A stretch of 62,416 bases of DNA, the filler included, from a bacterium (lineage in GTDB: Bacteria; JALSQH01), in NCBI GenBank assembly GCA_026985515.1. It is 8 parts of 8 records of this genome, joined end to end, with 100 filler letters (N's around TTAATTAATTAA, not from the genome) between each part and the next. Parts side by side here need not be neighbours in the genome. Positions count along the whole stretch, not along the records: positions 11,551 to 22,979 come from JALSQH010000141.1; 7 more parts are not named here. One strand, given 5' to 3'. Positions 4,029 through 22,979 of the stretch are shown here, in pieces (within the stretch, counting starts at the first letter, position 1; the number at the start of each line of letters is the position of its first letter). The notes beneath the pieces were generated by a model. It was not told the origin of the DNA. It did not search any database and saw only the letters and a list, made by a program, of their open reading frames with translations. Made by a program: the position numbers and the translations under genes.

Positions 4029-6734
4029 ATGAAGAAAATAGCTCTCTTTATCCTTCTGACCACAATACTGCTCTTTTCATGTTCCAGAGGTTCAGAAGAA
4101 AAAAACACAAAAATCAAAGAAATAAACACTGGTGCTTTGAAAAACAAAGTATATGTTTATTACGACGAATATCAGGTACCCCACATATATGCGATGAATG
4201 ACGGAGACCTTTACTGGACATTCGGATATATTGAAGCAAGAGATAGATTGTTTCAACTGGAGTTGTTCAGAAGACTTGCCACTGGCAGGTTGTCCGAATT
4301 GATAGGAGACATAGGTGGACTGATTACCCAGCTTGACTGGACAATGCGTGCAATGAATCTTACTCCAGAGGGAAGAGAAGTATGGGATTTAATGGTGGAA
4401 AAATCAAACCCTGCCATTGTGGATATAGTTAACAGGTTCGTTTCAGGGATAAATACTTACATTGATGAAATTAAGGCCGGAAAGGATGTGTACTACCCGG
4501 TTGAATTCAAGTATCTGAAAATAACCCCGGACCTGCTGGATCACTGGAAGGCAAGAGATGTTTTTGCAATCGACCGTCTGCTTACATTTTTTCTCTCAAC
4601 AACCCTTGATGAAGAATTTCTCTTTTCCTCCTGGTATGTAAATCTGAAAGGAAAAGATGACGATCTCTTAAACGAACTTCTTGACCTCAGACCGGTGGCG
4701 AAAACTCCCACCCTGCCCTATTTTTCCTGGAATGCTTCACCCTCACCGGCACCTGAAACAAATTCAAACTTTAGAAGTAGCTTACCATCAACACCCCTAA
4801 AAAATTTCTATACATTTCTGGAACTTGTAAGACAGGTTTTTCATCTTCCCTTTACAGGTTGGGCGAGTAACAACTTCGTCGTTTCTGGTGCAAAAAGTGC
4901 CACTGGTCACGCTTTTTTAGCAAATGACCCCCACCTTGAACTACTGAATCCATCCATTCTCTATGAACTTCACCTTGACTCAAAATCACTTCCAGGTGCA
5001 ACAGGAACTCTTGATGTTGAAGGTTTGACCTTTGTAGGTGTCCCGGCAATTGTGATAGGACACAATGAACATCTTGCGTGGGGTGGGACATTTCTGGGTT
5101 ACGATGTAACTGACCTTTACGCGGAAAAAATCACGATTCAGAATGGAAAAGATTACTTTTATCACAATGGAAACTGGTATCCTGTAAAACACTTCTTCCA
5201 TATCATCAAAGTCAGAAACTATCCATCCAACACATTTTCTGAAATTTATGCAGACTTCCCCTACATAAAATGGAATGACACAAACTGGCACGGGCCTCTC
5301 TTTCGCCTGACCAATCTTCCACCAACAGCGGGGTTTATACTAATGACTCCCTCCGGGATGAGAGGAATAGTAAACGTAGCAATAAAATGGACAGGAATGA
5401 TTCCAACCAGCGAGGCTGAGGCCTATATTGAAATTAACAGGGCAAAGACCTATGAAGATTTCGTAAGAGCAGCCAGATTGATAGGGGTTGGCGGACAGAA
5501 TCTTGTATTTGCAGATGATAATGGTAATATTGGATATGCTCCCTTTGCCCTCGTACCAAAACGTCAGTTATCTCCAGGTAGTAAGCCCTGGATGATAATG
5601 GATGGGACAGTGGATAACGAATGGACTGGATTTGTACCACTTGATGAACTTCCCCAGGTAACATGTAAAGAAGAAATTGAAAAATACAACCAAAGAGGCT
5701 TCATTGCCACTGCCAATAATGAACAGTATGGCGAGTCTTACGACAACGATCCCATGAATGGTAAGTATTACCTCATGTCTGATGCCGACATAGGATTCAG
5801 AGAAGAGAGAATCACTCATCTTTTAGAAAAGGGAGTCAAAGAGCACAAAATTGATATAAACTATCTTGAAAAAGTTCAGACAGATGACTACAGCCTGGTT
5901 GGAGAGTATTTCATGGATATTCTGAGAAAAAAATATCTCAATTCCAGTGAAGCAAAGAATCTCATTTCACAGGATAATCTTTCAAGTGCTCTGAACTACC
6001 TCTACAAATGGTCCTACTACACTCCTACAGGAACAGGTGATCCATTTGGGAAAAGGGTAACAGATTCAGAGATAAATGATAGCGTTGCCACAACCATATT
6101 TCATGCATGGATAAAAAGAATTGTGAAAAATACAATTTATGACGAACTGGATTTCTATGATGTGCCACATCCTTTCAATGAGTGGGGTGTAAAAATTCTC
6201 TACTACCTTCTGACAGCCACTTCCACCACTGATTCTCCAACATATGATCCTTCTCTCGGATACAGCAAACTTTTTGACGACATCAACACATCCAGGCAGG
6301 AAACTCCACTTGAAATAATTGTAAAATCTCTCAGAGAAACTGTGGAGTTCCTGTCAGAAAAAACCGGCAACGACAATCCATACTACTGGAGATGGGGAGA
6401 CTTTCACAAGTCACTCTTCATAGACCCATTCATACCATACACAAGGGGCCCCTTCCCGAGGGATGGCGGAGACTTTACCGTGAATGTTGGGAAAACAGAT
6501 TCAAGTGGAACAGACTTCACAAATACACATGCAGCTGTAACAAGATTTATTGTGGAATTGAATCCACATCATATAACAGCTATCAATTCTCTGCCTGGCT
6601 ATAATTCAGACAGATTTCCTCAACTCGAGCAGTACGACCAGCTCCCCCTGTGGCTCCACAATAAGTACCGCAAAATGCATTTCTACCTTCCCAACGTAAG
6701 AAAACATGTAACTGAGGAATTAATTTTAAGGTAG
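4029..6734 (+). CDS. Penicillin acylase family (S45, Ntn-hydrolase) lipoprotein, AHL-acylase/PvdQ-QuiP-like
   Basis: Lipobox LFSC; DEYQVPHIYA, GYIEARDRLFQLE, nucleophile site A-SNNFVVSG..ANDPHL, IGHNEHLAWG, GFIATANN, WRWGDFH; SD AAGGAGG. Confidence 0.9.
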   Translation: MKKIALFILLTTILLFSCSRGSEEKNTKIKEINTGALKNKVYVYYDEYQVPHIYAMNDGDLYWTFGYIEARDRLFQLELFRRLATGRLSELIGDIGGLITQLDWTMRAMNLTPEGREVWDLMVEKSNPAIVDIVNRFVSGINTYIDEIKAGKDVYYPVEFKYLKITPDLLDHWKARDVFAIDRLLTFFLSTTLDEEFLFSSWYVNLKGKDDDLLNELLDLRPVAKTPTLPYFSWNASPSPAPETNSNFRSSLPSTPLKNFYTFLELVRQVFHLPFTGWASNNFVVSGAKSATGHAFLANDPHLELLNPSILYELHLDSKSLPGATGTLDVEGLTFVGVPAIVIGHNEHLAWGGTFLGYDVTDLYAEKITIQNGKDYFYHNGNWYPVKHFFHIIKVRNYPSNTFSEIYADFPYIKWNDTNWHGPLFRLTNLPPTAGFILMTPSGMRGIVNVAIKWTGMIPTSEAEAYIEINRAKTYEDFVRAARLIGVGGQNLVFADDNGNIGYAPFALVPKRQLSPGSKPWMIMDGTVDNEWTGFVPLDELPQVTCKEEIEKYNQRGFIATANNEQYGESYDNDPMNGKYYLMSDADIGFREERITHLLEKGVKEHKIDINYLEKVQTDDYSLVGEYFMDILRKKYLNSSEAKNLISQDNLSSALNYLYKWSYYTPTGTGDPFGKRVTDSEINDSVATTIFHAWIKRIVKNTIYDELDFYDVPHPFNEWGVKILYYLLTATSTTDSPTYDPSLGYSKLFDDINTSRQETPLEIIVKSLRETVEFLSEKTGNDNPYYWRWGDFHKSLFIDPFIPYTRGPFPRDGGDFTVNVGKTDSSGTDFTNTHAAVTRFIVELNPHHITAINSLPGYNSDRFPQLEQYDQLPLWLHNKYRKMHFYLPNVRKHVTEELILR

Positions 6735-11450: not shown

Positions 11451-11550
11451 NNNNNNNNNNNNNNNNNNNNNNNNNNNNNNNNNNNNNNNNNNNNTTAATT
11501 AATTAANNNNNNNNNNNNNNNNNNNNNNNNNNNNNNNNNNNNNNNNNNNN
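11451..11550. other. Artificial contig-joining linker
   Basis: N44-TTAATTAATTAA-N44; the core carries stops in all six frames. Confidence 0.98.
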
Positions 11551-11990
11551 GGTTTGTGACGGAGACAGACACGATGGGGTAAAGGCGGAGCAATCGTGGA
11601 ATGCCCGCAGAGGAAGACATCCTTTTTGCGGAGCCTCCCATCGGGTCGGCTGTGAAAGCGGTTTATTCAGGTGAAGCTACTGCCACGGAGTCACAGTTAA
11701 CGGAGGGACAGAAGGTCGGAAAGAGGGAAAAGTGAATAAACCTTGCAGGGCGGATGGAGACCTTCTGTCCCGGAGTGGTTTGTGACGGAGACAGACCCGA
11801 TGGGATAAAGGCGAAGCAATCGTGGAATGCCCGCAGAGGAAGACATCCTTTTTGCGGAGCCTCCCATCGGGTCGGCTGTGAAAGTGGTTTATGCAAGTGA
11901 ACTCACCGCCACGGAGTCATATTTAACGGAGGGACAGAAGGTCGGAAAGGGGGGGGGCGGAAAACGAACAACCTGCAAAGCGATTCCACA
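11551..11990 (+). repeat. Tandem 226-bp non-coding repeat (at least two units, first truncated by contig start); candidate structured ncRNA array
   Basis: 11551-11723 and 11777-11949 align without gaps, with 12 substitutions in 173 nt by manual count. Unit 2 is closed by the 13-bp inverted repeat GACCTTCTGTCCC (11759-11771) / GGGACAGAAGGTC (11931-11943). Confidence 0.9.
11759..11943 (+). ncRNA. Putative ~185-nt structured RNA of unknown family (complete unit 2 of the repeat)
   Basis: Nested stems: 13-bp terminal helix; TGTGAC/GTCATA; GACCCGATGGGA/TCCCATCGGGTC; AGGC/GCCT; CCGCAGAGGA/TCCTTTTTGCGG; GTGGT/ACCGC capped by TTTAT-GCAA-GTGAA. G-U pairs favour the + strand; ~55% GC by manual count. 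Confidence 0.55.
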
Positions 11991-12202
11991 TCCTTCTGCA
12001 ACTTGGCTATGAGAGGCAAAAAGAAGTTTTAAAACTCAACCCCGTCCACGGACGCAGCCTCGCAATGCCCCGAGGGTGGAAGGTGACATGGAATAAACCA
12101 CACCATGAAAAGCGGCCAATAAGATATAAACCTCATTTGATTTTTCACTACCATAAGATATAATAACTTCAACTGCAAAAATCCTCTAACCAGGGAAACA
12201 AT

Positions 12203-12817
12203 GTGGAGCATCTGATAAATTTTTTGGGTGGCTATTCAGCACACATAATTTACTTCCTCATATTCTTTTTTCTCATCCTCTGCGGGCTGGGATTCCCCGT
12301 TCCGGAGGACATAATCCTCCTCACCACAGGATATTTTGTCTATACTGGTGACATTCATCTCCTCCCGGCCCTCGTAATAACCTACTCTGCGGTTCTTGGC
12401 GGTGACACAATAATCTATATGATAGGTAAAATCTGGGGACTTAATATTCTCAAAAAGAAATTCTTCCGCAGGATTTTTTCCGAGAAAAAAATAGAAATAG
12501 TGAGGCATCATTTCAATCTCTACGGCAACAAAACCATCTTCTTTGCACGATTTGTCGTGGGCATAAGATCTGTTACCTTCTGGTCAGCTGGAGTCGTGGG
12601 GTTCCCCTACTGGAAATTCATCCTTTACGATGGTCTTGCAGCAATAATTTCTGTACCCGTAATCGTTTATCTCGGTTACTTCTTCGGAGAAAACATCGAA
12701 TACCTGGCAAAGAATATGAGAAAAGCAGAGTTTGCCCTTTCAATTGTTGGTGGACTTGCCATTCTCTTTCTCATTTACTATAGTGTAAAGAGATTTAAGA
12801 AGAGGGAGAGCACTTGA
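12203..12817 (+). CDS. dedA: DedA family membrane protein
   Basis: GLGFPVPEDIILL, LGGDTIIYMIG, IFFARFVVGIRS, KFILYDGLAA; GTG start. Confidence 0.93.
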   Translation: MEHLINFLGGYSAHIIYFLIFFFLILCGLGFPVPEDIILLTTGYFVYTGDIHLLPALVITYSAVLGGDTIIYMIGKIWGLNILKKKFFRRIFSEKKIEIVRHHFNLYGNKTIFFARFVVGIRSVTFWSAGVVGFPYWKFILYDGLAAIISVPVIVYLGYFFGENIEYLAKNMRKAEFALSIVGGLAILFLIYYSVKRFKKREST

Positions 12818-13590
12818 GAATAGCAATAATTTCAGTGGGAAGAGAGATACTCAGGGGGAGAGTCCTGGACACAAACTCCAACTACCTTGCCAGGGAATTA
12901 ACTGCCCTTGGTCACCAGGTGGTAAGGATTTCCCAGATTGACGATATCAGGGAGGAAATCATATGGGAAGTCAAATATGCTGCATCTTCACCTGTTGAAG
13001 TAATCATAACCACAGGTGGCCTTGGTCCCACATCTGATGATATAACAATTCCCTCCATAGCCGCTGCATTTGACACACCATGTTTTGAGAATAAAGAAGC
13101 ATTGAAGATAGTTGAAGAGAGATACAGATACTTTTACGAAAAAGGTGCTGTTGAATCACCTGACCTGACCCCTGAGAGGAAAAAGATGGCGTGCTTTCCA
13201 GAAGGAGCAGTACCACTCTTCAACAATGTGGGAGCCGCGCCAGGGATGAAGTGGGAAAAGAATGGAATTACAATCTACTCTCTCCCCGGCGTTCCTGCAG
13301 AGATGAAGTACATTTTTGAAAACCATATAAAGCCTGACCTGGAAGAAAGAAATATCTATCGTGAAAGATTTGTTGAAACCCCATGCAGAGATGAATCATT
13401 GCTGGAAAAATACATTTCAGATTTTAAAAAAAGAAACCCGGACATTTACATCAAATCTGTACCTGAAAAATTTGGAAAAGAAGTACGAATAAAAGTTGTA
13501 ATAGGAATGAGGGGAGACCGGGAAAAAATTGAGGAACTCCTCACTTCACTTGCTGGTGAGTTTTTAAAATCCATCAGGGAGCCCTGCTGA
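12814..13590 (+). CDS. Competence/damage-inducible protein A-like (MoCF_biosynth domain), lacking the C-terminal NMN deamidase domain
   Basis: SVGREILRGRVLDTNSNYLA, TTGGLGPTSDDIT, GAAPG, LPGVPAEM; only 258 aa. Confidence 0.85.
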   Translation: MRIAIISVGREILRGRVLDTNSNYLARELTALGHQVVRISQIDDIREEIIWEVKYAASSPVEVIITTGGLGPTSDDITIPSIAAAFDTPCFENKEALKIVEERYRYFYEKGAVESPDLTPERKKMACFPEGAVPLFNNVGAAPGMKWEKNGITIYSLPGVPAEMKYIFENHIKPDLEERNIYRERFVETPCRDESLLEKYISDFKKRNPDIYIKSVPEKFGKEVRIKVVIGMRGDREKIEELLTSLAGEFLKSIREPC

Positions 13591-14249
13591 TGAAAATGAT
13601 CGCAGCCTCCATTCTTTCTGCCGATTGCACGAAACTTGGAGAGGAGATAAAAAGAGTTGAAGAGGCCGGGGTTGACCTTATCCACATTGATGTAATGGAT
13701 GGTCACTTTGTTCCAAATATTACCATGGGTCCATTTGTTGTTGAATCCATCAGAAAAATAACAGATCTCCCCCTGGATGTGCACCTGATGATAGAAAACC
13801 CCATTTTTTTTGTTGAAGACTTCATAAGAGCGGGGGCAGACTGGATTTCAGTGCATGTTGAAGGTGAAAAACATCTGGAAAGAGTTCTTTCAAAAATCAG
13901 GTCAAAAGGAAAAAAAGCCGGTGTAGTTTATAATCCGGCAACCTCCATAGAGGGCTTTGAGTTTATTGAACATGTGGTTGATTTCGTCCTGATAATGACA
14001 GTAAATCCCGGTTTTGGGGGACAGAAAATGATAGAACCGGTTCTGAAAAAGGTAACGATGCTGAAGGAAAGATACAATCTTGAAGAGAAGGGTATCCCGG
14101 TGGAAGTTGATGGGGGAATAAAAGTGGAGAATATTAAAAAAGTTGCCCTTGCAGGAGCAGACATTTTTGTATCTGGCAGTGGAATATTCAAAAGCAATGA
14201 TTACAGGACCACAGTTGAAAAAATGAGGAGGATCATCAGTGAAATTTAA
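13590..14249 (+). CDS. rpe: Ribulose-phosphate 3-epimerase
   Basis: SILSAD, HIDVMDGHFVPNIT, DVHLMI, MTVNPGFGGQ, EVDGGI. Confidence 0.97.
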   Translation: MKMIAASILSADCTKLGEEIKRVEEAGVDLIHIDVMDGHFVPNITMGPFVVESIRKITDLPLDVHLMIENPIFFVEDFIRAGADWISVHVEGEKHLERVLSKIRSKGKKAGVVYNPATSIEGFEFIEHVVDFVLIMTVNPGFGGQKMIEPVLKKVTMLKERYNLEEKGIPVEVDGGIKVENIKKVALAGADIFVSGSGIFKSNDYRTTVEKMRRIISEI

Positions 14250-15747
14250 ATATCTCCTCATTGCCATTCTCGTCACAGGTCTGTTAATTGGGTGTCACAA
14301 AAAGAAGTTCAATCCGGGGGAAATTATTGTGGGACTTGAGGGAAGTCCCTCAATTTTTGATCCAAGGCTTGCCACAGATGCATATTCTGCGAGGATAAAC
14401 TCACTCATATATGATGGGCTGGTGAGGATAAATGAGAGGGGGGAAATTGCACCTGATCTTGCCGAAAAATGGGAAATAAAAGGGAAAAAAGTTATCTTTC
14501 ACATCAGAAAAGGGGTGAAATTTCACAATGGTAAAGAGCTCACCTCCAGAGACGTGAAGTGTACCATAGAGAGCATTCTTCATTCCCCCTCCCCTTACCG
14601 GAACAGCCTGAATACAATTGAGAAGATTGAAATACCTGATAGATACACTGTAATTCTCCACCTTAAACAGATTTTTGCTCCCCTTCTCACCGCTCTTGCT
14701 GTTGGAATAGTACCCTGTGGAGATGACCCGGACCACTTTAAACCTGTGGGAACAGGTCCATACATGTTGAAGGAGTTTAAAAGGGGAGAGGAGGTGGTTC
14801 TGACGAGATTTGAAAACTATTTCCTGGGTACTCCCCACCTCCAGAAAATAATTTTTAAAGTGATCCCTGACGACACAACAAGAATCATGGAACTCGAAAG
14901 GGGGGAAGTCTCACTACTCCAGAACTCAATCCCTCCAGATTTCCTTCCTGAGTTAAAGAAAAACGGGGAAATAGAAATAGTTATCAAACCTGGGGTAAAT
15001 GTCTCGTATCTTGGATTCAATCTTAAAGACCCCATCCTTTCCCGGGTAGAGGTTAGAAAAGCTATTGCTCTTGCAATAAACAGGGATGAAATTATAAAAC
15101 ATCTCCTGGGAGGACTTGCAAGTAAGGCCAGCTCCATTATATCTCCACAACTCTGGGCATATACACCTGTCACTGTACCTGGATATGACCCGGAGAAGGC
15201 AGAAAAACTTCTTGACAGGGCTGGATACAAAAGAGGTGCTGATGGAATAAGATTTTCACTGGAGTACAAAACATCCACAAACAGATTGAGAAGAAGAATA
15301 GCAGAAGTGATAGCAAGGCAACTGGAAAGGGTGGGAATCAGAGTGAAAGTGAGGAGTTATGAATTTGGAACATTTTTCAGTGACATAAGGAAGGGGAATT
15401 TTCAAATCTACTCACTAACCTGGGTGGGAATAACCGATCCTGATATTCTTTACTACGCCTTTGATTCCCACAGCATTCCTCCCGAGGGAGCAAACAGGGG
15501 TCATTATCACAATGAAGAATTTGATAAACTTGTTGAAGAGGCAAGACATACCTTCAATAAAAATAAGCGAAAAAAACTCTATGCAAAGGCTCTTAAAATA
15601 CTTGCAGAGGACCTTCCCATTTATCCTCTCTGGTATCACTTTAACATAATCGCTTACAGAAAGGGCCTCAGGGGCATAAAGATTCATCCGGGGGGAGATT
15701 ACTATTTTCTTAAAGATGTGTACTGGCTGAGATCCTCCGGAAAGTAA
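14239..15747 (+). CDS. Peptide/nickel ABC transporter substrate-binding lipoprotein (SBP family 5)
   Basis: Lipobox LIGC; IYDGLV, PDLAEKW, GVKFHNG..TSRDV, PVGTGPY, VRKAIALAINR. Confidence 0.92.
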   Translation: MKFKYLLIAILVTGLLIGCHKKKFNPGEIIVGLEGSPSIFDPRLATDAYSARINSLIYDGLVRINERGEIAPDLAEKWEIKGKKVIFHIRKGVKFHNGKELTSRDVKCTIESILHSPSPYRNSLNTIEKIEIPDRYTVILHLKQIFAPLLTALAVGIVPCGDDPDHFKPVGTGPYMLKEFKRGEEVVLTRFENYFLGTPHLQKIIFKVIPDDTTRIMELERGEVSLLQNSIPPDFLPELKKNGEIEIVIKPGVNVSYLGFNLKDPILSRVEVRKAIALAINRDEIIKHLLGGLASKASSIISPQLWAYTPVTVPGYDPEKAEKLLDRAGYKRGADGIRFSLEYKTSTNRLRRRIAEVIARQLERVGIRVKVRSYEFGTFFSDIRKGNFQIYSLTWVGITDPDILYYAFDSHSIPPEGANRGHYHNEEFDKLVEEARHTFNKNKRKKLYAKALKILAEDLPIYPLWYHFNIIAYRKGLRGIKIHPGGDYYFLKDVYWLRSSGK

Positions 15748-17456
15748 CTCCAGAGGATTCCGGGATGGATCAGAAAAGAGGGTTCACCATTTCTGAAAAA
15801 GTAGCCATAAAGATAGGGTACTGACCTGAAATCAGATGGTAATTCTCTAACAAGAACCATATCAATCTCTTCCACTTCCTCAATAAAATATCCAAGATAT
15901 TTCCCTCTAAACCCAAAGATAAGTGCTGTCCCGGATGGCACCCCCTTTACCTCTATCTTTTCTCCTCTAAACCTCACATTATCTGGATCATCCACTGAAA
16001 CAAGTGCCTCAACCATATAAGAGGGGAAAGCCACCCTTTCTCCATTCATCATCACAATTACCACATTCTGAAGAATCGCTGATCTGGGAATTTTGATTGT
16101 AAAAACAGTGCCTTTACCTCTCTCGCTTTCCACATATATAAAACCATAGAGTTTCTGAACCATCTCCTTTACAGCATCAAGTCCCACCCCCCGGCCAGCT
16201 ATAACATCCTTATTTTCCGAGGTGCTCATTCCCGGATGGAAAAGATACTGAAGGATTTCACTTTCAGAAAGATCTGCGATCTTCTCCTTCTCAACCAGAC
16301 CCATCTCAACAATTTTTTCCCTGACCCTCTCAATATCCACACCTCTTCCATCATCTGAAACCCTGATCTGAAATGCATCAGGAAAATCCTCTGCCTCTAT
16401 TTTAACTATTCCAGCTGGAGACTTGCCCATCTCTCTCCTTTCCTCGGGAGTTTCAATACCATGATAAACTGCATTCTTAATAATATGCACAAGTATGGAG
16501 TAAAGTTTATCAACCACCCCTCTATCGATCAAAACCCCTTTATCAACAATGGTGAGTATTACACGCTTTCCAAGTTCCTTTGAATAACTCTGCACCATCT
16601 CTTTCAAACCATCTTCAAGAATTTTCAGTGGTACCATCCTTATGTCAAGAAGCCTGTCATACATTTTCTCCACAAGCATATCCAGTTTAAAGGAAAGATC
16701 ATCATCCGGATCAAGTTTTCTTTTTATCTTCTCTTTGAGAAGAAAGAATTGTGTGAGGTCATCCATCAATCTATCAAGATCATCGATTCTTACTCTTAGC
16801 GTTTCCCCCAGAAGGGGCTTTTGCTCTGGAGATTCTACAGGAGAAACATTTACTCCTATTATTCCCTTTTCACCTTCCAGGAGATTATAAAGTTTCCCCA
16901 CATTTCCCTTTACAATAAGAGATAGAGGATTGGGATATTCACCCTTTTTAAGCAGGTTCTTATCTGCGTTGCTTCTGTAAATCTCAAGTTCCCTTCCAAT
17001 ATTTCTGATGAGTTTAAAAATGGTAGCTGATGGCATGGGAAGCGAGGATGAAAGGAAAATATCAACTTTAAATGTGCCTTCCCCTGAAGAAGTTTCTTTA
17101 ATTACAGGAACCAGGCCTTCTTTCTTCCCCTCTTTTTCCTCTTTCTCTTCTAACTCCACCCCACTCTCAATATATCTTTCAATCATTCTTTTTATTTCCC
17201 CGTAGATTCGGGAAATTTCCTCTCTTCCTTTTTCAAAGGCACTGATGGATGAAAAGTACTCCTCAAGTCTGTGAATTTTTTCAACAGTTCTGCTCAATCC
17301 CACTGTGGCACACATTCCCTTCAGAGAGTGGGCATGCCTGTAGGCTTCAGCAAGTTCTTTTTCACCGGGAAGGGAACCGGAAATTACGGATTCAATACCT
17401 TTTAGATGCTCCTGAGCTTCCTCAATAAATAATTCTCTCAGTCTTTCCTTTCTCAT
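15702..17456 (-). CDS. cheA: Chemotaxis histidine kinase CheA (DifE-like)
   Basis: Hpt AYRHAHSLKGM, dimerisation LRVRIDDLDRL, HIIKNAVYHGIE, DDGRG, FHPGMST..GRGVGLD, GKGTVF, C-terminal CheW-like domain. Confidence 0.93.
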   Translation of the reverse strand: MRKERLRELFIEEAQEHLKGIESVISGSLPGEKELAEAYRHAHSLKGMCATVGLSRTVEKIHRLEEYFSSISAFEKGREEISRIYGEIKRMIERYIESGVELEEKEEKEGKKEGLVPVIKETSSGEGTFKVDIFLSSSLPMPSATIFKLIRNIGRELEIYRSNADKNLLKKGEYPNPLSLIVKGNVGKLYNLLEGEKGIIGVNVSPVESPEQKPLLGETLRVRIDDLDRLMDDLTQFFLLKEKIKRKLDPDDDLSFKLDMLVEKMYDRLLDIRMVPLKILEDGLKEMVQSYSKELGKRVILTIVDKGVLIDRGVVDKLYSILVHIIKNAVYHGIETPEERREMGKSPAGIVKIEAEDFPDAFQIRVSDDGRGVDIERVREKIVEMGLVEKEKIADLSESEILQYLFHPGMSTSENKDVIAGRGVGLDAVKEMVQKLYGFIYVESERGKGTVFTIKIPRSAILQNVVIVMMNGERVAFPSYMVEALVSVDDPDNVRFRGEKIEVKGVPSGTALIFGFRGKYLGYFIEEVEEIDMVLVRELPSDFRSVPYLYGYFFRNGEPSFLIHPGILWSYFPEDLSQYTSLRK

Positions 17457-17815
17457 TTAAAAAGCTTATTCACCACCTTCTTTATATCTCTTCTGGAGAA
17501 GGGCTTCACAATGAATTCCTCAGCTCCCGCCTCAAGAGCTTCAACCACCACATTCTTCTGACCCAGGGTGGTTATAACGATTATTTTTGCATCGGGATCC
17601 TTCTCCTTTATCTCCTTAATTGCATCGATTCCATTCTTGCCCGGCATGACGATATCCATGGTCACAAGATCAGGCTTCAATTCCTGGTAGAGGTTAACTG
17701 CTGAATCCCCATCAAACGCTTCACCAACCACCTCAAAATCAAGGGATGTAAAAATCTCCTTCAACTTTTCCCTCATAAATCTCGCATCATCAGCAATCAA
17801 AACTCTCCTCTTCAT
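17453..17815 (-). CDS. cheY: Single-domain response regulator CheY (DifD-like)
   Basis: VLIADDARFMR, PDLVTMDIVMPGKNG, GAEEFIVKPF; start moved to MKRRV. Confidence 0.92.
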   Translation of the reverse strand: MKRRVLIADDARFMREKLKEIFTSLDFEVVGEAFDGDSAVNLYQELKPDLVTMDIVMPGKNGIDAIKEIKEKDPDAKIIVITTLGQKNVVVEALEAGAEEFIVKPFSRRDIKKVVNKLFK

Positions 17816-17831
17816 AACTCTCCTCACACCT

Positions 17832-18161
17832 TTATTCTGCAAATTCAATTATCCTGTAACGCTCCCCACCATACAAAAGCCAACCTTCTTCCTGTTCCAC
17901 CTTTTCGTCTTCAACTGTCGCCAGGATTCCCTCAATCTGAATCGTCCTTCCTCCTCTGAGAAAAAGGAAAAGCATGTGTTCTGCATTAACTCTGTTAATT
18001 ATAGCATAAATTTTCTCCCTGAAAACAACTGCCCCCTTCAAATCTTTCCCCCGGTAAAAGGGTATTGAAAAAACCTTCTCCACCTCCTCCACACCATCAA
18101 CCCTTTCCAGAGGGACTGCCAGAAGTGACCCATCAGAGCTTTTAACCAGAAAATACTTCAT
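17832..18161 (-). CDS. cheW: CheW-like coupling protein (divergent, DifC-like)
   Basis: LAVPLERVDGVEEVEKVFSIPF..LKGAVVFREKIYAII resembles CheW; lies between the MCP and cheY. Confidence 0.7.
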   Translation of the reverse strand: MKYFLVKSSDGSLLAVPLERVDGVEEVEKVFSIPFYRGKDLKGAVVFREKIYAIINRVNAEHMLFLFLRGGRTIQIEGILATVEDEKVEQEEGWLLYGGERYRIIEFAE

Positions 18162-19424
18162 CTATGTCCTGAATCTCATCACAAGTTGTCTCAGTTTCTC
18201 AGTTGACTCGTTTAACTTTTTCACTTCTTCGTAGATTTTCCCAAGGTATTCCACCTCATATTCGATGGACTTTGCTATTTCACTAAGGGAAATGGTTGTT
18301 TCTCTTGATATGGACGACGCCCTTTCAACATCGCCCGACACCGAATCAATTATTCTGCTCCCCTCAATAAATGAGGTCCCTATTTCCTTTATGCTTTTTG
18401 TAAAGCCATCAATATTATCTGAAACATTTTCAATTGCTTCATAAACATTGTCAAGGTTACTCTTCCCCTCTGTAACACTCTCACTGGTTTCCTCAATTGT
18501 GCTCCTGACAGCATTGCTTTTTTCTTTCAATTCTTCCATCACATTTCTGATTTCAGAAGTGGAATTTTTCGTATGAATGGCGAGATGTCTTATCTCCTCT
18601 GCAATAACAGAAAAACTCTCGCCATACTCACCGGCTCTCGTTGCCTCTATGGCTGCATTTACAGCAAGTATATCGGTTCTTCTCGCCACATCATCAATTA
18701 TCTCAACAAGTTCTTCAATCTCCTTTAATTTTCCAATCAGGGAGAGCATCCCGCTGCTTGAATTCTCAATGTTTGAAAGAACTCTTTTAAGATCGCTGAT
18801 AAGCTCCTCTACATTCTGCAAAATTCTCTTGCTTTTCCTTCCTGCTTCATCAGAGAGTTTTAAAATATCCATAACCTTCTTCACCTCTTCTTTCATCCTC
18901 TTCCTCAAATTTCCAAGAGAATCATTAACATTTTCAAAAATGTCCAGCTGCTCTTCCGCCTTCTTCACCAATCTCCTTGCCGAGCTGCCCACCTCTTCTG
19001 CCGCCACAGAGATGTTTTCAGATGATTCAAGAATATTTTTGGAGAGTTCATCTATCCCAAAGGAAACATTTTTTATCTCTTCAACCATTTCCCTCAGCCC
19101 TTCCCTCATGTTGAGAAGTTCGCTATACAATTTTGCAAGCTCATCATCAAAGAATCTCTTGAAAGAAGGAGTGTAACCGAGATCACCTTCTCTGATCCTT
19201 CTTGTAAAATTTCCAAGGGTTTCAACTGCCCTGTCAAGGGACCTTGACATCAGGATCCCTATGATGAGACCAACAGTTATGGCAATGGCAATTGAAACAA
19301 CGTTGTTGTACCACTCTCCCGGATTCAACCACTCAACCAGCACAAAACCAAGGATAACTGAAACAATCACAAAGAGAAAGGCAAAAATAAACTGATAGCC
19401 GATGTCAATTTTCAGTTTTCTCAT
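18162..19424 (-). CDS. Methyl-accepting chemotaxis protein with two TM helices and no periplasmic sensor domain (DifA-like)
   Basis: Two adjacent N-terminal hydrophobic helices with a ~8-aa loop, HAMP (GDL..DELAKL), signalling tip IDDVARRTDILAVNAAIEATRAGEYGESFSVIAEEIRHLA. Confidence 0.92.
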   Translation of the reverse strand: MRKLKIDIGYQFIFAFLFVIVSVILGFVLVEWLNPGEWYNNVVSIAIAITVGLIIGILMSRSLDRAVETLGNFTRRIREGDLGYTPSFKRFFDDELAKLYSELLNMREGLREMVEEIKNVSFGIDELSKNILESSENISVAAEEVGSSARRLVKKAEEQLDIFENVNDSLGNLRKRMKEEVKKVMDILKLSDEAGRKSKRILQNVEELISDLKRVLSNIENSSSGMLSLIGKLKEIEELVEIIDDVARRTDILAVNAAIEATRAGEYGESFSVIAEEIRHLAIHTKNSTSEIRNVMEELKEKSNAVRSTIEETSESVTEGKSNLDNVYEAIENVSDNIDGFTKSIKEIGTSFIEGSRIIDSVSGDVERASSISRETTISLSEIAKSIEYEVEYLGKIYEEVKKLNESTEKLRQLVMRFRT

Positions 19425-19445
19425 GAAACCTCTCCATTTTACATA

Positions 19446-19475
19446 ATTATAACCCCATTACCTTCCTGTTTGCAA
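19446..19475 (-). promoter_or_regulatory. Sigma70-type promoter of the chemosensory operon
   Basis: On the minus strand: TTGCAA-18 nt-TATAAT, followed by SD GGAGG and the MCP ATG. Confidence 0.55.
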
Positions 19476-19517
19476 AAAAATGTTATATGTAATACAATGA
19501 TGATTAAGGAGGGTAAG

Positions 19518-19841
19518 ATGAAAACACTCTTCTATTGTGAGGAACTCAATTACAGAAGCGTGAAATTTGATACTCGAATCTATTCCCTTGATCAGCGGTA
19601 TGTTATTACCAGAGACAACAAAAAGTACTTCACAAGAGTAACCAGCATCAAATTCAACAGAGATGGTACAAGAGAGATCATTCTGGAACTGGAAAAGGAC
19701 AATGTCAAAAGAGAGGAGAAAAAAATACCTGTTGAAGTTTCAACCCCTGTACCCTCATGGATAGACAGATTAATAAGGGACATTGAAGGGAAAAAAGGAA
19801 GGGTTTACTGGCACAGGAGAAGAAGAAAAAGGAAGTATTAG
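19518..19841 (+). CDS. Hypothetical protein with basic C-terminus
   Basis: SD AAGGAGG before ATG 19518; codon usage matches neighbours; ends in HRRRRKRKY; no family recognised. Confidence 0.6.
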   Translation: MKTLFYCEELNYRSVKFDTRIYSLDQRYVITRDNKKYFTRVTSIKFNRDGTREIILELEKDNVKREEKKIPVEVSTPVPSWIDRLIRDIEGKKGRVYWHRRRRKRKY

Positions 19842-19900
19842 TCTTGACAATTTTAAAAAAGTGTTATAAAACTTTTTGTGTCAAAGGCAGGTAGGTGGAT

Positions 19901-20110
19901 ATGGCAAACATACTGAAGGAACTGGAAAGGAAAAATGTGATTGTCTATTCTATGGGGGTAACATACAAGGGAATTCTCATTGAGGCAAATGAGACTGAGG
20001 TTTACCTCAGGACCCAGAATGGATGGGTCACCATCCCCATGGACAGAATCGCAAAAATAGCCCCTGCACCAGAGGAAAAAGATTTCACTGGAAGAACAAG
20101 AAAAAAATAA
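19901..20110 (+). CDS. Small protein with Sm/LSm-like fold pattern
   Basis: KNVIVYSMGVTYKGILIEANETEVYL..GWVTIPMDRIAKI matches the Sm1/Sm2 beta-strand pattern; TTGACA at 19844 upstream. Confidence 0.6.
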   Translation: MANILKELERKNVIVYSMGVTYKGILIEANETEVYLRTQNGWVTIPMDRIAKIAPAPEEKDFTGRTRKK

Positions 20111-20124
20111 TTTCCTGTCCATAA

Positions 20125-20904
20125 GTGGAAACAATTTTCGGAAAATGTGTTAATCCCGCCTTTATTGCTCTCAGAAGGAGAATTTTCAAAAGAGCCGGGG
20201 AGGCAACCAGAAAGTTCAAACTTATAGAAGAAGGTGATAGAATCCTTATAGGTTTTTCGGGGGGAAAAGATAGTTTTGTGCTGGTAGACTACCTGCACCA
20301 CCTCAGATTGAGCAGACCAGGAAAATTTCAGATAGAAGCTGCCATGGTTGATATGAATTTTCCAGAAGAAGAAGTGAATTTTATCAGGGGGATTCTGGAA
20401 AAGAATTCAATTCCTTTTCACCTGATTCCATCTAAAATACCCTCCATTGTAACAGGTAAAATGGAAAATCATAAAAATGCATGTGTGCTCTGTTCAAGAC
20501 TCAGAAGAGGGCTACTGTACTCCTTTGCAAGGGAACACAGATTCAACAAACTGGCACTGGGTCATAACGCCGACGATGTAATAGAAACTCTCCTTCTGAA
20601 TCTCTTTTATAATGGCAAAATAAAGGCAATGTCTCCCCGCTTTCTCAATGATGATGGCGATCTGATTGTAATCAGACCCCTCTACTATGTGATGGAAGAA
20701 GACACTCGAGCATACGCCAGAGAGTTAAATTGGAATGTTATCAACAATCCTTGCCCCCTCCAAAAATTCCGCGGGGAAAAGAGGGAAATTATAAAAAAGA
20801 TACTTAAAGAACTTGAAGAAGATTTTCCCGCTGTTAAGAAAAATATCATCAGATCGCTGGAAAAAATCGAGAAAAGATTTTTACCTCCCCCTCCAGACTC
20901 ATAA
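20125..20904 (+). CDS. ttcA: tRNA 2-thiocytidine(32) synthetase TtcA family
   Basis: PP-loop SGGKDS, CVLCSRLRRG, ALGHNADDVIETLLLN, VIRPL. Confidence 0.9.
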   Translation: METIFGKCVNPAFIALRRRIFKRAGEATRKFKLIEEGDRILIGFSGGKDSFVLVDYLHHLRLSRPGKFQIEAAMVDMNFPEEEVNFIRGILEKNSIPFHLIPSKIPSIVTGKMENHKNACVLCSRLRRGLLYSFAREHRFNKLALGHNADDVIETLLLNLFYNGKIKAMSPRFLNDDGDLIVIRPLYYVMEEDTRAYARELNWNVINNPCPLQKFRGEKREIIKKILKELEEDFPAVKKNIIRSLEKIEKRFLPPPPDS

Positions 20905-22587
20905 ATCCTCCGCTACCGGGATTCGCACCATAAATCTACTGCCCTTCCCCGGCTTGGAAGTAACCATGATTTTGCCGTTATTTTTCTCAAGGATATTTGA
21001 AACTATTGAGAGACCCAGCCCTGTTCCCTTTTCCCTTGTCGTGTAAAATGGTGTAAATATTCTGTCAATCTCCTCTGGAGGGATCCCTATACCATTATCC
21101 TCAATGGCTATCTCAATCTCGTTTCCCTCATGCAGTGAAGTTTCAATCAAAATCCATTTTTCTTCCTTGTCAAGGAACTGAAGTGCATTTTGAATAAGAT
21201 TAACAATTATCTCTTCAAGTTCGGTCCTGTCAAATTCAACAGGTGGCAGAGGTTCTGTAAGATTCAATTTTAACTCTATTCCGTTTTTCCTGAACTGGTA
21301 CTCAAAGAGAGAAAGAACCTCTTTTACTATTCTGTTAACATTGAGTTTTTCCTTTTTGCGGGAAGGCCTTGAGAAATGGAGAAGGTTTTCAAATAGTCTT
21401 GATACCCTTTCTGTATCGGCTATTATCTTCTGCAACTTATCCAGATCCGCTTCAGTTATCTCTCTTCCCCTGGAAAATTTATGAAGGAGCAATTGAGCGT
21501 AAGTGCTTATACCTGTTATGGGATTGTTAAGTTCATGTGCAATACCGGCAACCATCTGACCTATTGTGGCAAGTTTATCCTGCCTCAGCATCGCCGCCTC
21601 TGCTTCTCTTGCCTTCTCTTCCTGGATCTTTGCCCGAGTAACATCTTTAAATGAAACAATTTTAACATTCTCGTTAAGCATGGTTACATGTATTTCAAGA
21701 TATTTTTTCTTATCATTGACCAGAAGGGGATAATCAGACAATACCAGATCCTCCTCAGGTCTCACATTCACAATTAAGTCATAAAGACCGGTCTCTCTGA
21801 ATCTTTGAAGCAACTTTTCAAGCGTATCCGACTCAAAAATATCCATAATTCTTCTGTTGTAAAAACGAATATTCTCTCCCTCCCAGATAACCACCCCAAC
21901 AGGGAGAAAAGAGAGGACATCTTCAAGAAACTTCTCAAGTTCCTGGAATCTTTCCTTCTCCCGGTAAAGACTATCAAAGTTTTTTTCCATTCTCTTTCTC
22001 AGGGTTTCTATAATCAGTGTGAACAGAAGAATATAAAAAATCACACCAGGTATGAAGAAAAGATTTACAACCTCACCATAGTGAGCCTCAATAAAATCCC
22101 GAATAATGTTGGCTCCACCAAGCATCCCCCTGCTTTCAAGAACCCCTGTCAGAGAAAGGAGAAGGATTATGTAAAGGAGGAGTAAATTCTTATATTTTCC
22201 CTTATCAAACACAAAGGGAATATAAAGGACAACAGGAACAAAAAATATTGAAAGCTTGGAGGAAAAACAACCAAGATAGAGACAAACTGCGCTGAGGAGA
22301 AGAATATCAATGAGAGTTACGCCTCTTGCATACGCGCAAAGCCACCTGTTTCTTTCTGGTTCCTGGAATCTGTTAAAACGGCGCAGCAGAATAAAACTTG
22401 ACACAGCATAAATGAGAGAAATAACCAGAATTGTCGTGAGATAAACTGGTACAATACCAAGCACACCTATCCACGAGAAATATAGAAGGACAAAGGCAAC
22501 AAAAACTGCAAAAAATCTGTAGAGACATCCAAGAATTGATAAAACGTATATATCATCAGATGTGAGAAGATGTTTTTCCTGAGTCAT
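20899..22587 (-). CDS. Membrane sensor histidine kinase (PilS/NtrB-like: TM, PAS-like, HisKA, HATPase)
   Basis: About six TM segments; LATIGQMVAGIAHELNNPI, NLIQNA, EDNGIGI, FTPFYTT, GTGLGL. Confidence 0.92.
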   Translation of the reverse strand: MTQEKHLLTSDDIYVLSILGCLYRFFAVFVAFVLLYFSWIGVLGIVPVYLTTILVISLIYAVSSFILLRRFNRFQEPERNRWLCAYARGVTLIDILLLSAVCLYLGCFSSKLSIFFVPVVLYIPFVFDKGKYKNLLLLYIILLLSLTGVLESRGMLGGANIIRDFIEAHYGEVVNLFFIPGVIFYILLFTLIIETLRKRMEKNFDSLYREKERFQELEKFLEDVLSFLPVGVVIWEGENIRFYNRRIMDIFESDTLEKLLQRFRETGLYDLIVNVRPEEDLVLSDYPLLVNDKKKYLEIHVTMLNENVKIVSFKDVTRAKIQEEKAREAEAAMLRQDKLATIGQMVAGIAHELNNPITGISTYAQLLLHKFSRGREITEADLDKLQKIIADTERVSRLFENLLHFSRPSRKKEKLNVNRIVKEVLSLFEYQFRKNGIELKLNLTEPLPPVEFDRTELEEIIVNLIQNALQFLDKEEKWILIETSLHEGNEIEIAIEDNGIGIPPEEIDRIFTPFYTTREKGTGLGLSIVSNILEKNNGKIMVTSKPGKGSRFMVRIPVAEDL

Positions 22588-22979
22588 TCACTCCTCAAAT
22601 GAAATGTTAACTTTTATCTCCGTATCACCGAGTTTTATGATGTCCCCATCTTTCAGTTTCCTTGTAAAAACAAGCACTCCATTGAGGTAGGTTCCATTTT
22701 TACTTGCCAGGTCTCTCAGAAAAATATTCTCCCGTGTAATAGCCTCAATCACGGCATGCTTTCGTGACACTTTTATATCATCCAGAGGTATATCAACATC
22801 CTTCCTTCCTATTTTCACCCTTGACTTTCTGATGTGGAAAATTTTACCCCTGTCGTTTCCCTTTATAACTTCGAGGGTAAGGTTGAGTCCGGGAGGGAGA
22901 GGTAGTTCATCAAGATTGAAGGATGGCTGCATGATAGTGGTTTCTTCCTCAATATTCCCCTCCTCATCAAAGATTATTC
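22588..22979 (-). CDS. FHA domain protein (5'-truncated by contig end)
   Basis: KIGR, VSRKHA, DLASKNGTYLNG, LKDGDIIKLG; frame stays open upstream of the track start (IIFDEEGNIEEETTIMQP) to the linker. Confidence 0.9.

Follow-up and report, generated by a model that had tools for sequence, protein, structure and literature searches.

Positions 11551–11990 of the 62,416-nt stretch of bacterial DNA analysed here (the window; GenBank assembly GCA_026985515.1) hold a tandem array of a 226-bp, G+C-rich unit with an elaborate predicted fold, and we find that this unit belongs to a dispersed repeat family. The reading to which we give an even chance is that the family is a lineage-restricted interspersed repeat of the REP/BIME-REPIN-BOX kind (repetitive extragenic palindromic sequences, bacterial interspersed mosaic elements and related repeats) that is recognized as a folded single strand. 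The data establish that this repeat family exists, that it is non-coding and present in many copies, and how it is built, how its sequence motifs are arranged and how unevenly it is conserved. An earlier note, made from the sequence of the window alone, had singled out the array as a set of functional structured RNAs; new beyond that note are the dispersed family, the CGGAG loops, the uneven diversity, the array ends, the arrays adjacent to lipoprotein genes and an inverted core. The source is an uncultured bacterium from a hydrothermal-vent metagenome, diderm and chemotactic. Its Ffh protein has three relatives at 88–90% identity, with Desulfobacterota and Myxococcota proteins next at ~60%, and its lineage, barely sampled and known from a few metagenome bins, has its closest named relatives in the Desulfobacterota and Myxococcota.

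Two head-to-tail copies of the unit lie in the window. They align without gaps over 177 nt (11551–11727 and 11777–11953) at a spacing of 226 and are identical at 164 of 177 positions (93%), which bears out the earlier description of two gap-free copies with this period. Tandem Repeats Finder did not report the array in the window, which contains fewer than two copies; on the complete array of another locus, L007, it returned a period of 225, 2.2 copies and 92% matches. The window consists of eight contig pieces joined by stop-codon spacers, each N44-TTAATTAATTAA-N44. One such artificial spacer (N44, TTAATTAATTAA, N44; 11451–11550) ends at 11550 and the contig proper begins at 11551, inside unit 1, as had been noted; window positions 11551–22979 are identical to a complete 11,429-nt metagenome contig (L005).

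All parts of the array are described here on the plus strand. Unit 1 (11551–11717) has its first ~18 nt cut off by the contig start and lacks the 5′ arm of the terminal helix. It is followed by an inter-unit linker with a G-run and an A-rich part (11718–11758) and then by the complete unit 2 (11759–11943), which is bounded by the 13-bp terminal helix P1 (11759–11771 with 11931–11943). The array end (11944–12002) comprises the last linker and a degenerate copy of the P1 5′ arm (CCTTCTG, 11992–11998), and tails of this kind also close the arrays in the loci L004, L006 and L007. The layout of the repeat is one of 13-bp inverted arms alternating with a 159-nt core and a 41-nt linker. The G+C content of 11551–11990 is 54.8% against 37–43% for the eight window pieces, in agreement with the earlier claim of a G+C-richer island, and the unit, at 55%, is 14 points richer than the genome at about 41%. 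Purines make up most of its sense strand (G 34.5%, A 26%, C 21%, T 18%).

Beyond the window, scanning metagenome contigs with one 20-mer gave five loci: the array's own contig (L005), three others from the same metagenome that carry units (L004, L006 and L007) and L003, which proved to be a chance match within an open reading frame (ORF) and was dropped as an array locus. At least five arrays are present on the four contigs. The L007 array has unique flanks on both sides and reads, in sense order, leader, a remnant of the unit's 3′ third, two full units and degenerate tail. In L006 the leader is joined directly to a tail with no full unit; a ParE/antitoxin pair follows on the other strand, and beyond it lie a 5′-truncated unit and then one full unit. 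The L004 contig ends inside a unit, mirroring the window contig that begins inside one. Two studies contribute four DNA runs that contain parts of the L007 stretch. For run X1, contig depth summed to 35–425 over the units, 8–12 in the flanks and about 20 in the leader, that is, 3–50 times as high over the units as in the flanks; summed contig depth is not copy number, and it suggests that many more unit copies exist than those on the recovered contigs and that the depth of the leader is what two loci alone would give. Loose ends were also numerous and varied (18 listed and 12 more).

The arrays also differ in how many units they hold and in how they end. A contig of run X2 contains one unit more than L007 (joint 2460→2255). 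Array 5′ ends are cut at varying unit positions, whereas the 3′ ends are uniform, with one degenerate tail. In run X4, record 28 joins the sense linker and a 13-bp arm to a reverse-complement core at L007:2260–2353. This contig has the unit core inverted exactly at the 13-bp arms and comes from a related population; the inversion was seen in one contig, at a depth of 4.5, in one of the four runs. Within the window, blastn, nhmmer and a 13-mer scan with two mismatches found no further unit copies. Local alignment against shuffles detected no decayed unit remnants beyond the tails in four of five flanks, and in the L004 flank an 11-nt piece of the 5′ arm (P 0.01); window 12040–12100, which had looked like a unit remnant, is not counted as one.

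We favor the interspersed-repeat reading because of this dispersal and copy number, the variable unit counts, the ragged 5′ truncations with a uniform 3′ tail, the inserted toxin-antitoxin pair, the inverted core and the unrelated neighbors of the arrays. A dispersed family with truncated, decayed and inverted copies is the usual picture of interspersed repeat DNA and not of an RNA gene. As a separate observation, the 5′ truncation points of units in different loci tend to fall immediately 3′ of the two inner hairpins of greatest stability (L007 unit positions ~95–101 and ~150–152, and L006:3890; about five cases), a clustering that polymerase stalling or hairpin-mediated deletion could produce.

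The 226-bp unit is non-coding. Among the six copies that retain the start codon of the longest unit frame, two carry stops and one a frameshift (the seventh copy, which is truncated and lacks this start codon, was left out of the count). Differences among copies are spread 15/14/15 over codon positions, the period, 226, is not divisible by three, and the four repeat ORFs tested gave no Pfam match. The claim that the array contains no credible ORF thus holds up.

One strand of the unit is predicted to form a multi-branched structure. In unit 2 the inner domain (11794–11873) is closed by the 12-bp helix P3 (11794–11805 with 11862–11873), which encloses the best-conserved part of the unit, and beside it stands a G-U-rich side arm, P5–P6 (11874–11916). 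The arms of P1 and of P3 are perfectly complementary, so both helices reported earlier are sound, and the fold of unit 2 has an energy of −88.3 kcal/mol (z −6.4), with none of 200 shuffles as good. The core without its terminal helix has a z of −3.6. On the reverse strand, unit 2 reaches z −6.5, yet is 10 kcal/mol less stable. Sense folds better than antisense in three of the four full units, the antisense being 6–10 kcal/mol worse there, and it has 4–6 G-U pairs per full unit against 1–4 on the antisense strand.

The most distinctive feature of this fold is the placement of the word CGGAG. Full units contain six CGGAG words, every one on the same strand, where 0.5 are expected, and none of 20000 shuffles reaches six. 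In unit 2 of the window the words begin at 11771, 11786, 11855, 11912 and 11927 (span 11771–11931) and the sixth reads CGAAG; in unit 1 a word scan places them at 11560, 11586, 11629, 11686 and 11701. Counted as sense to antisense, the word stands at 10:0 across 750 nt scanned at the window array, 13:1 in L007, 11:2 in L006 and 5:0 in L004, and of the 64 CGGAG matches in the window, 10 fall within the 440 bases of the array. In the fold, word 1 faces word 6, word 2 faces word 5 and word 3 faces word 4, each pair forming the same symmetric C-GGA-G/C-GGA-G loop in which the C and the final G are Watson-Crick paired and GGA lies opposite GGA. What had been described as a 9 × 9 internal loop is in fact one such 3 × 3 GGA/GGA loop, followed by two base pairs and a small loop. 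The minimum-energy fold holds two of the three loops in all four full units, and a fold with all three costs 1.3–6 kcal/mol more. Duplication of a DNA palindrome would set CTCCG against CGGAG and cannot give GGA/GGA loops, a pattern that accordingly suggests a role for one strand in its folded form.

To describe how the unit varies, we used an alignment of seven unit copies (A2). Copies are 90–96% identical between loci, and the likeness within arrays is no greater than that between arrays. Nucleotide diversity (pi) is 0.064 in the unit and 0.24 in the linker (difference p 5e-8), the latter being the most variable part of the whole repeat, which agrees with the greater divergence of the linkers noted between the two window copies. 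Within the unit, pi is 0.024 in the 56-nt center, 0 in the junction J2/3 before P3, 0.02–0.04 in the closing helix and 0.14 in the side arm, which is the unit's most variable part; from the central core to the linker, diversity differs ten-fold. A 70-nt stretch that is identical in both window copies (11815–11884 in unit 2, 11589–11658 in unit 1) likewise has a pi of 0.024 over seven copies and includes an 18-nt segment that is unpaired or weakly paired in the fold.

Over the seven copies, 95.1% of cells are paired against 95.0% in shuffles, covariation is not above that of shuffles (178 of 500 reach the score, and one pair shows a double change), and the share of variable columns does not differ significantly between paired (21/128) and unpaired (13/57) positions (p 0.31). 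Because the copies are 90–96% alike, however, the covariation test is not a fair one and counts little either way. The earlier note had argued for RNA from differences that keep the pairing, and here it fares less well: the changes that it cited are wobble changes, the arm helix is 87% paired over seven copies, and the want of covariation in the larger alignment is an outcome that the note itself had named as counting against its proposal. The A at 11571, which was said to break a pair, is the majority state (five of six copies), and the arm loop that had been read as a GNRA tetraloop is GCAA in two of seven copies and TCAA, TCAG or TAAA in the others, so that the tetraloop is not a conserved feature.

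The family appears undescribed as far as Rfam, phage and plasmid collections, a one-word genome scan and viral contigs reach. Rfam 15 gave no match for the whole window at gathering thresholds, with no tRNA, rRNA or other family found, and at E ≤ 10 it gave three chance-level matches for 11551–12250, at 14–17 bits against thresholds of 44–80, so the earlier failure to place the unit in a known RNA family is upheld. An exact 20-mer scan of 185,579 species genomes returned two chance matches of 20–23 nt (L001 and L002), although a scan with a single word does not show absence. Phage and plasmid collections held no blastn match, three 20-mer scans of viral contigs returned nothing, and a literature search for tandem non-coding RNA arrays in vent microbes brought up nothing relevant.

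The closest known systems are repeats. In a study of Pseudomonas fluorescens SBW25, inverted REP sequences are described in ordered tandem arrays with spacings of 112 and 72 bp, a 184-bp next-neighbor peak is assigned to such arrays, and these occur at eleven sites with up to 12 per array, two of the arrays being nearly identical (PMC3116915). The family described here likewise has short inverted repeats, ordered tandem arrays and many intergenic copies. It resembles the REP/BIME and REPIN elements of enterobacteria and Pseudomonas in being non-coding, intergenic and present in many copies, in having inverted repeats that alternate with two kinds of spacer, in its near-identical arrays at distant sites, and in arms that are better kept than the hairpin spacer. 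Unlike in REP sequences, the arms here are 13 bp long and are not themselves palindromes, the 159-nt 'spacer' is the best-conserved and most structured part, the window contains no solo copies, and there is no sequence similarity.

BOX elements have the layout boxA-boxB(n)-boxC, and the array here is similar in that its two ends differ from the tandem modules between them, which vary in number. The BOX repeat of Streptococcus pneumoniae is modular, extensively structured and confined to a narrow lineage, and it is thought to affect co-transcribed genes (PMC3049150). BOX modules are about 45–60 nt and mostly single, whereas the unit here is 226 nt, multi-branched, G+C-rich and found in arrays only. 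A miniature inverted-repeat transposable element (MITE) would match the length of ~185 bp, the absence of coding, the perfect 13-bp terminal inverted repeats, the hairpin-like fold and the many copies. MITEs, however, are usually not G+C-rich, and we rejected this assignment: every copy seen lies in a head-to-tail array with a shared, conserved linker, with no independent or solo insertions and no evidence of target-site duplication. A ToxI-like type III toxin-antitoxin array or a CRISPR array was rejected as well, the unit being 226 nt against repeats of ~30–40 nt; where those arrays have a toxin gene directly downstream or unique spacers, the gene following the array here changes from locus to locus and all the linkers share homology.

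Under the interspersed-repeat reading, arrays would grow and shrink through duplication and loss of units, would be copied to new intergenic sites, and would then decay at their edges. We infer that this spread takes place as DNA and that a protein reads the loops. The constant feature would be the fold of one strand, a Y-shaped structure of ~185 nt with a 13-bp closing helix, three purine loops and a conserved unpaired stretch, and its constancy may reflect a trans-acting protein that recognizes the folded single strand. Any transcript that runs through an array would take on this fold as well, and might affect neighboring genes as a by-product.

Several observations weigh against this reading. 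Uneven constraint would fit copies kept in place by selection, and a purely selfish element does not predict it. REP and BOX modules are far simpler and several times smaller than this multi-branched unit, whose core alone has a z of −3.6. Its G+C content exceeds that of the genome by 14 points, and G+C-rich islands in the A+T-rich genomes of thermophiles are a classic sign of RNA genes. Its best-kept stretch is partly unpaired, and its purine loops fit an RNA platform for protein binding as well as a DNA one. Taken together, the G+C excess, complex fold, one-strand loops and uneven conservation are compatible with selection for a single-strand fold, most simply read as RNA. The 62-kb window also lacks a solo 13-bp arm (three exact matches, all in the array; one match with two mismatches fits chance), and domain scans of 111 different ORFs from the window and three further contigs (~85 kb) found no transposase, RAYT, recombinase or CsrA domains. 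The complex fold, the one-strand loops and the uneven conservation are, on the other hand, also what a transposase or recombinase that binds single-stranded DNA would select.

The alternative that survives best is a multi-copy structured non-coding RNA read from the plus strand, which we consider a real possibility though the less probable one. Here, ~185-nt Y-shaped scaffolds with three symmetric loops and a conserved single-stranded stretch would be bound by a protein, probably a dimer, and arrays transcribed as one precursor would titrate or assemble that protein in the manner of CsrB/RsmZ without membership in that family. The strong folds of unit and core, the sense strand's better fold in three of four full units and its larger number of G-U pairs, the G+C content and purine-rich sense strand, the six CGGAG words forming three identical loops, and the constraint that is highest in the center and in J2/3 all speak for such an RNA. 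Where the side upstream in the sense direction is known (three of three loci), the gene there is divergent, so that a sense transcript would need its own start, and could have one. The intergenic leaders of L006 and L007 match each other at 90% of positions, and at every position over about 125 nt, a stretch with a weak sigma-28-type match that was found post hoc and serves as a lead only.

This RNA reading has to contend with the covariation result, with paired and unpaired columns that vary alike, and with a z-score that is the same on both strands. Simple scans of three loci found no sigma-70-like sense promoter and no terminator-like site, and the leader is apparently confined to two loci. 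Tens of copies, ragged 5′ truncations, an inserted toxin-antitoxin pair and an inverted core would be unusual for RNA genes. The signs of a stand-alone RNA gene, namely a sense promoter, a terminator and covariation, are thus absent in the data tested, and the interpretation given in the earlier note, a functional structured RNA array, is partly supported: the array is non-coding, strongly folded and outside Rfam, and those three signs were not found.

The comparison with CsrB/RsmZ is nonetheless instructive. CsrA sites are defined by GGA in hairpin loops, and CsrB has 22 GGA (PMC7652899). The unit has a comparable GGA density (12–15 per 226-nt unit), three of its six CGGAG words are preceded by A, the resulting ACGGAG words share the GGA core of CsrA sites, and two sites per symmetric loop would suit a dimer. 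Unlike in CsrB/RsmZ, the words lie in internal loops of long stable helices or at helix ends, with no whole GGA in a hairpin loop of the fold, and no promoter or terminator frames the unit. A CsrB-like sponge is a functional analogy only. That the repeats represent a new putative structured RNA class, with many-locus tandem arrays of Y-shaped modules that sequester or assemble a dimeric RNA-binding protein, is a proposal that we advance tentatively.

Either outcome would be of interest. As repeat DNA, the family would be akin to REP/BIME and BOX elements, though unusually large and elaborate, and its readable features for single-strand recognition, three identical purine loops and a conserved unpaired core, would suit the study of how such repeats are recognized and how they spread. 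As RNA, it would constitute a new structured class, one whose protein-binding module is repeated, in a lineage of few metagenome bins, and, should the sponge reading be true, an independent invention of the sponge or scaffold principle in a barely sampled lineage. The geometry of the CGGAG loops gives a concrete, testable handle in both cases.

We regard as improbable that the repeat is a DNA-level switch or control region for surface lipoprotein genes, acting either through a core that a site-specific recombinase flips between its 13-bp inverted repeats or as an upstream region where protein binds next to the lipoprotein promoter. In its favor is the arrangement at L006 and L007, where the sense-upstream neighbor of the array is a paralogous lipoprotein gene on the other strand (L007:2709–4730 and L006:4747–6504, both plus strand), encoding a signal peptide with a lipobox cysteine. 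Each array abuts a conserved promoter-like site in the leader (TTGACT, 16–17 nt, TACACT, with an upstream TG) that is directed into this gene, and the leader is 90% identical while the proteins are 37–39% identical over about 290 residues. A (TCAT)6 repeat just upstream of the L006 gene and the X4 contig with its core inverted exactly at the 13-bp arms would also suit a switch, and a 185-bp segment with 13-bp arms is within the size range of known invertible promoters. The window and L004 arrays, however, adjoin other genes, and the leader depth fits two loci. No promoter-like site was found within the unit in either direction, the window and the three contigs carry no recombinase gene, and the inversion amounts to that one contig at depth 4.5 in one of four runs. 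Flipping would, moreover, leave the elaborate inner fold and the one-strand CGGAG pattern unexplained.

These same lipoprotein genes bear on the earlier suggestion that a partner gene might lie upstream of the array. At the two complete loci a paralogous lipoprotein gene does lie there; it is on the other strand, its product is exported, and depth suggests that the leader is confined to two loci. The suggestion is thus half borne out. The lipoprotein family is very rare, with six proteins at E ≤ 0.001 in a search of 5.8 billion proteins, the query included; it has no Pfam match, and a protein atlas search gave no usable match.

More doubtful still is a regulatory RNA from the opposite strand, whose CUCCG words and one CCUCC site would place C/U-rich loops where they could pair with mRNA ribosome-binding sites; by analogy it could be likened to C-rich small RNAs that pair with such sites. 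This strand has a z of −6.5 and the better fold in one of four units, and at L007 the upstream operon and the lipoprotein gene run in the same direction as it would. On this strand, however, the G-U-rich side arm is lost, the energy is 6–10 kcal/mol worse in three of four units, the three loops turn into pyrimidine-pyrimidine mismatches, and in the window no upstream gene runs in its direction. An assembly artefact, a protein-coding repeat or a described RNA family can be practically dismissed: the contig does break inside a unit and short ORFs do cross units, but independent contigs and runs from two studies carry the tandem form, as the earlier note had held, with the L007 array complete at two full units between unique flanks and the X2 contig one unit longer, while the period, the stops, the frameshift, the even codon-position differences and the lack of Pfam matches for the four repeat ORFs exclude coding, and Rfam offers no credible match even at E ≤ 10.

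Some further features of the leaders deserve mention. The fully identical stretch spans L007:2484–2600 and L006:4517–4640, the sense direction being the minus strand. The weak sigma-28-like sense match within it (TAAA, 14 nt, 5/8 of the −10 box), scored against the sigma-28 consensus, was found post hoc, as was a 7-bp inverted repeat around the lipoprotein promoter-like site in the same stretch. In L006 the simple repeat is a perfect (TCAT)×6.2 (4724–4748), which follows the promoter-like site and precedes the probable start of the lipoprotein gene, and simple repeats of this sort often cause slipped-strand phase variation.

The L006 region holds two other genes of note. A ParE-type toxin gene and its small upstream partner (L006:3966–4404, plus strand) lie within the repeat region, where they separate the leader-plus-tail remnant from the 5′-truncated unit. 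The sense strand also has, some 0.5 kb downstream from the array, a gene (L006:2794–3018, minus strand) whose 74-aa product contains a PurA/DUF3276-like domain, of the kind that binds single-stranded nucleic acid. Proteins of the Pur family bind single strands rich in purines; the gene was seen at one locus only, and its position may therefore be a coincidence.

The genes beyond the arrays are mutually unrelated: they encode DedA and two proteins of 321 aa and 99 aa, and one array faces the end of an RNase G operon. In the window, the gene downstream of the array (12203–12817, plus strand) encodes a DedA/VTT-domain membrane protein. It is preceded by a promoter-like site of its own (TTGATT-16-TATAAT, 10/12; 12137–12164, plus strand), and so need not depend on the array.

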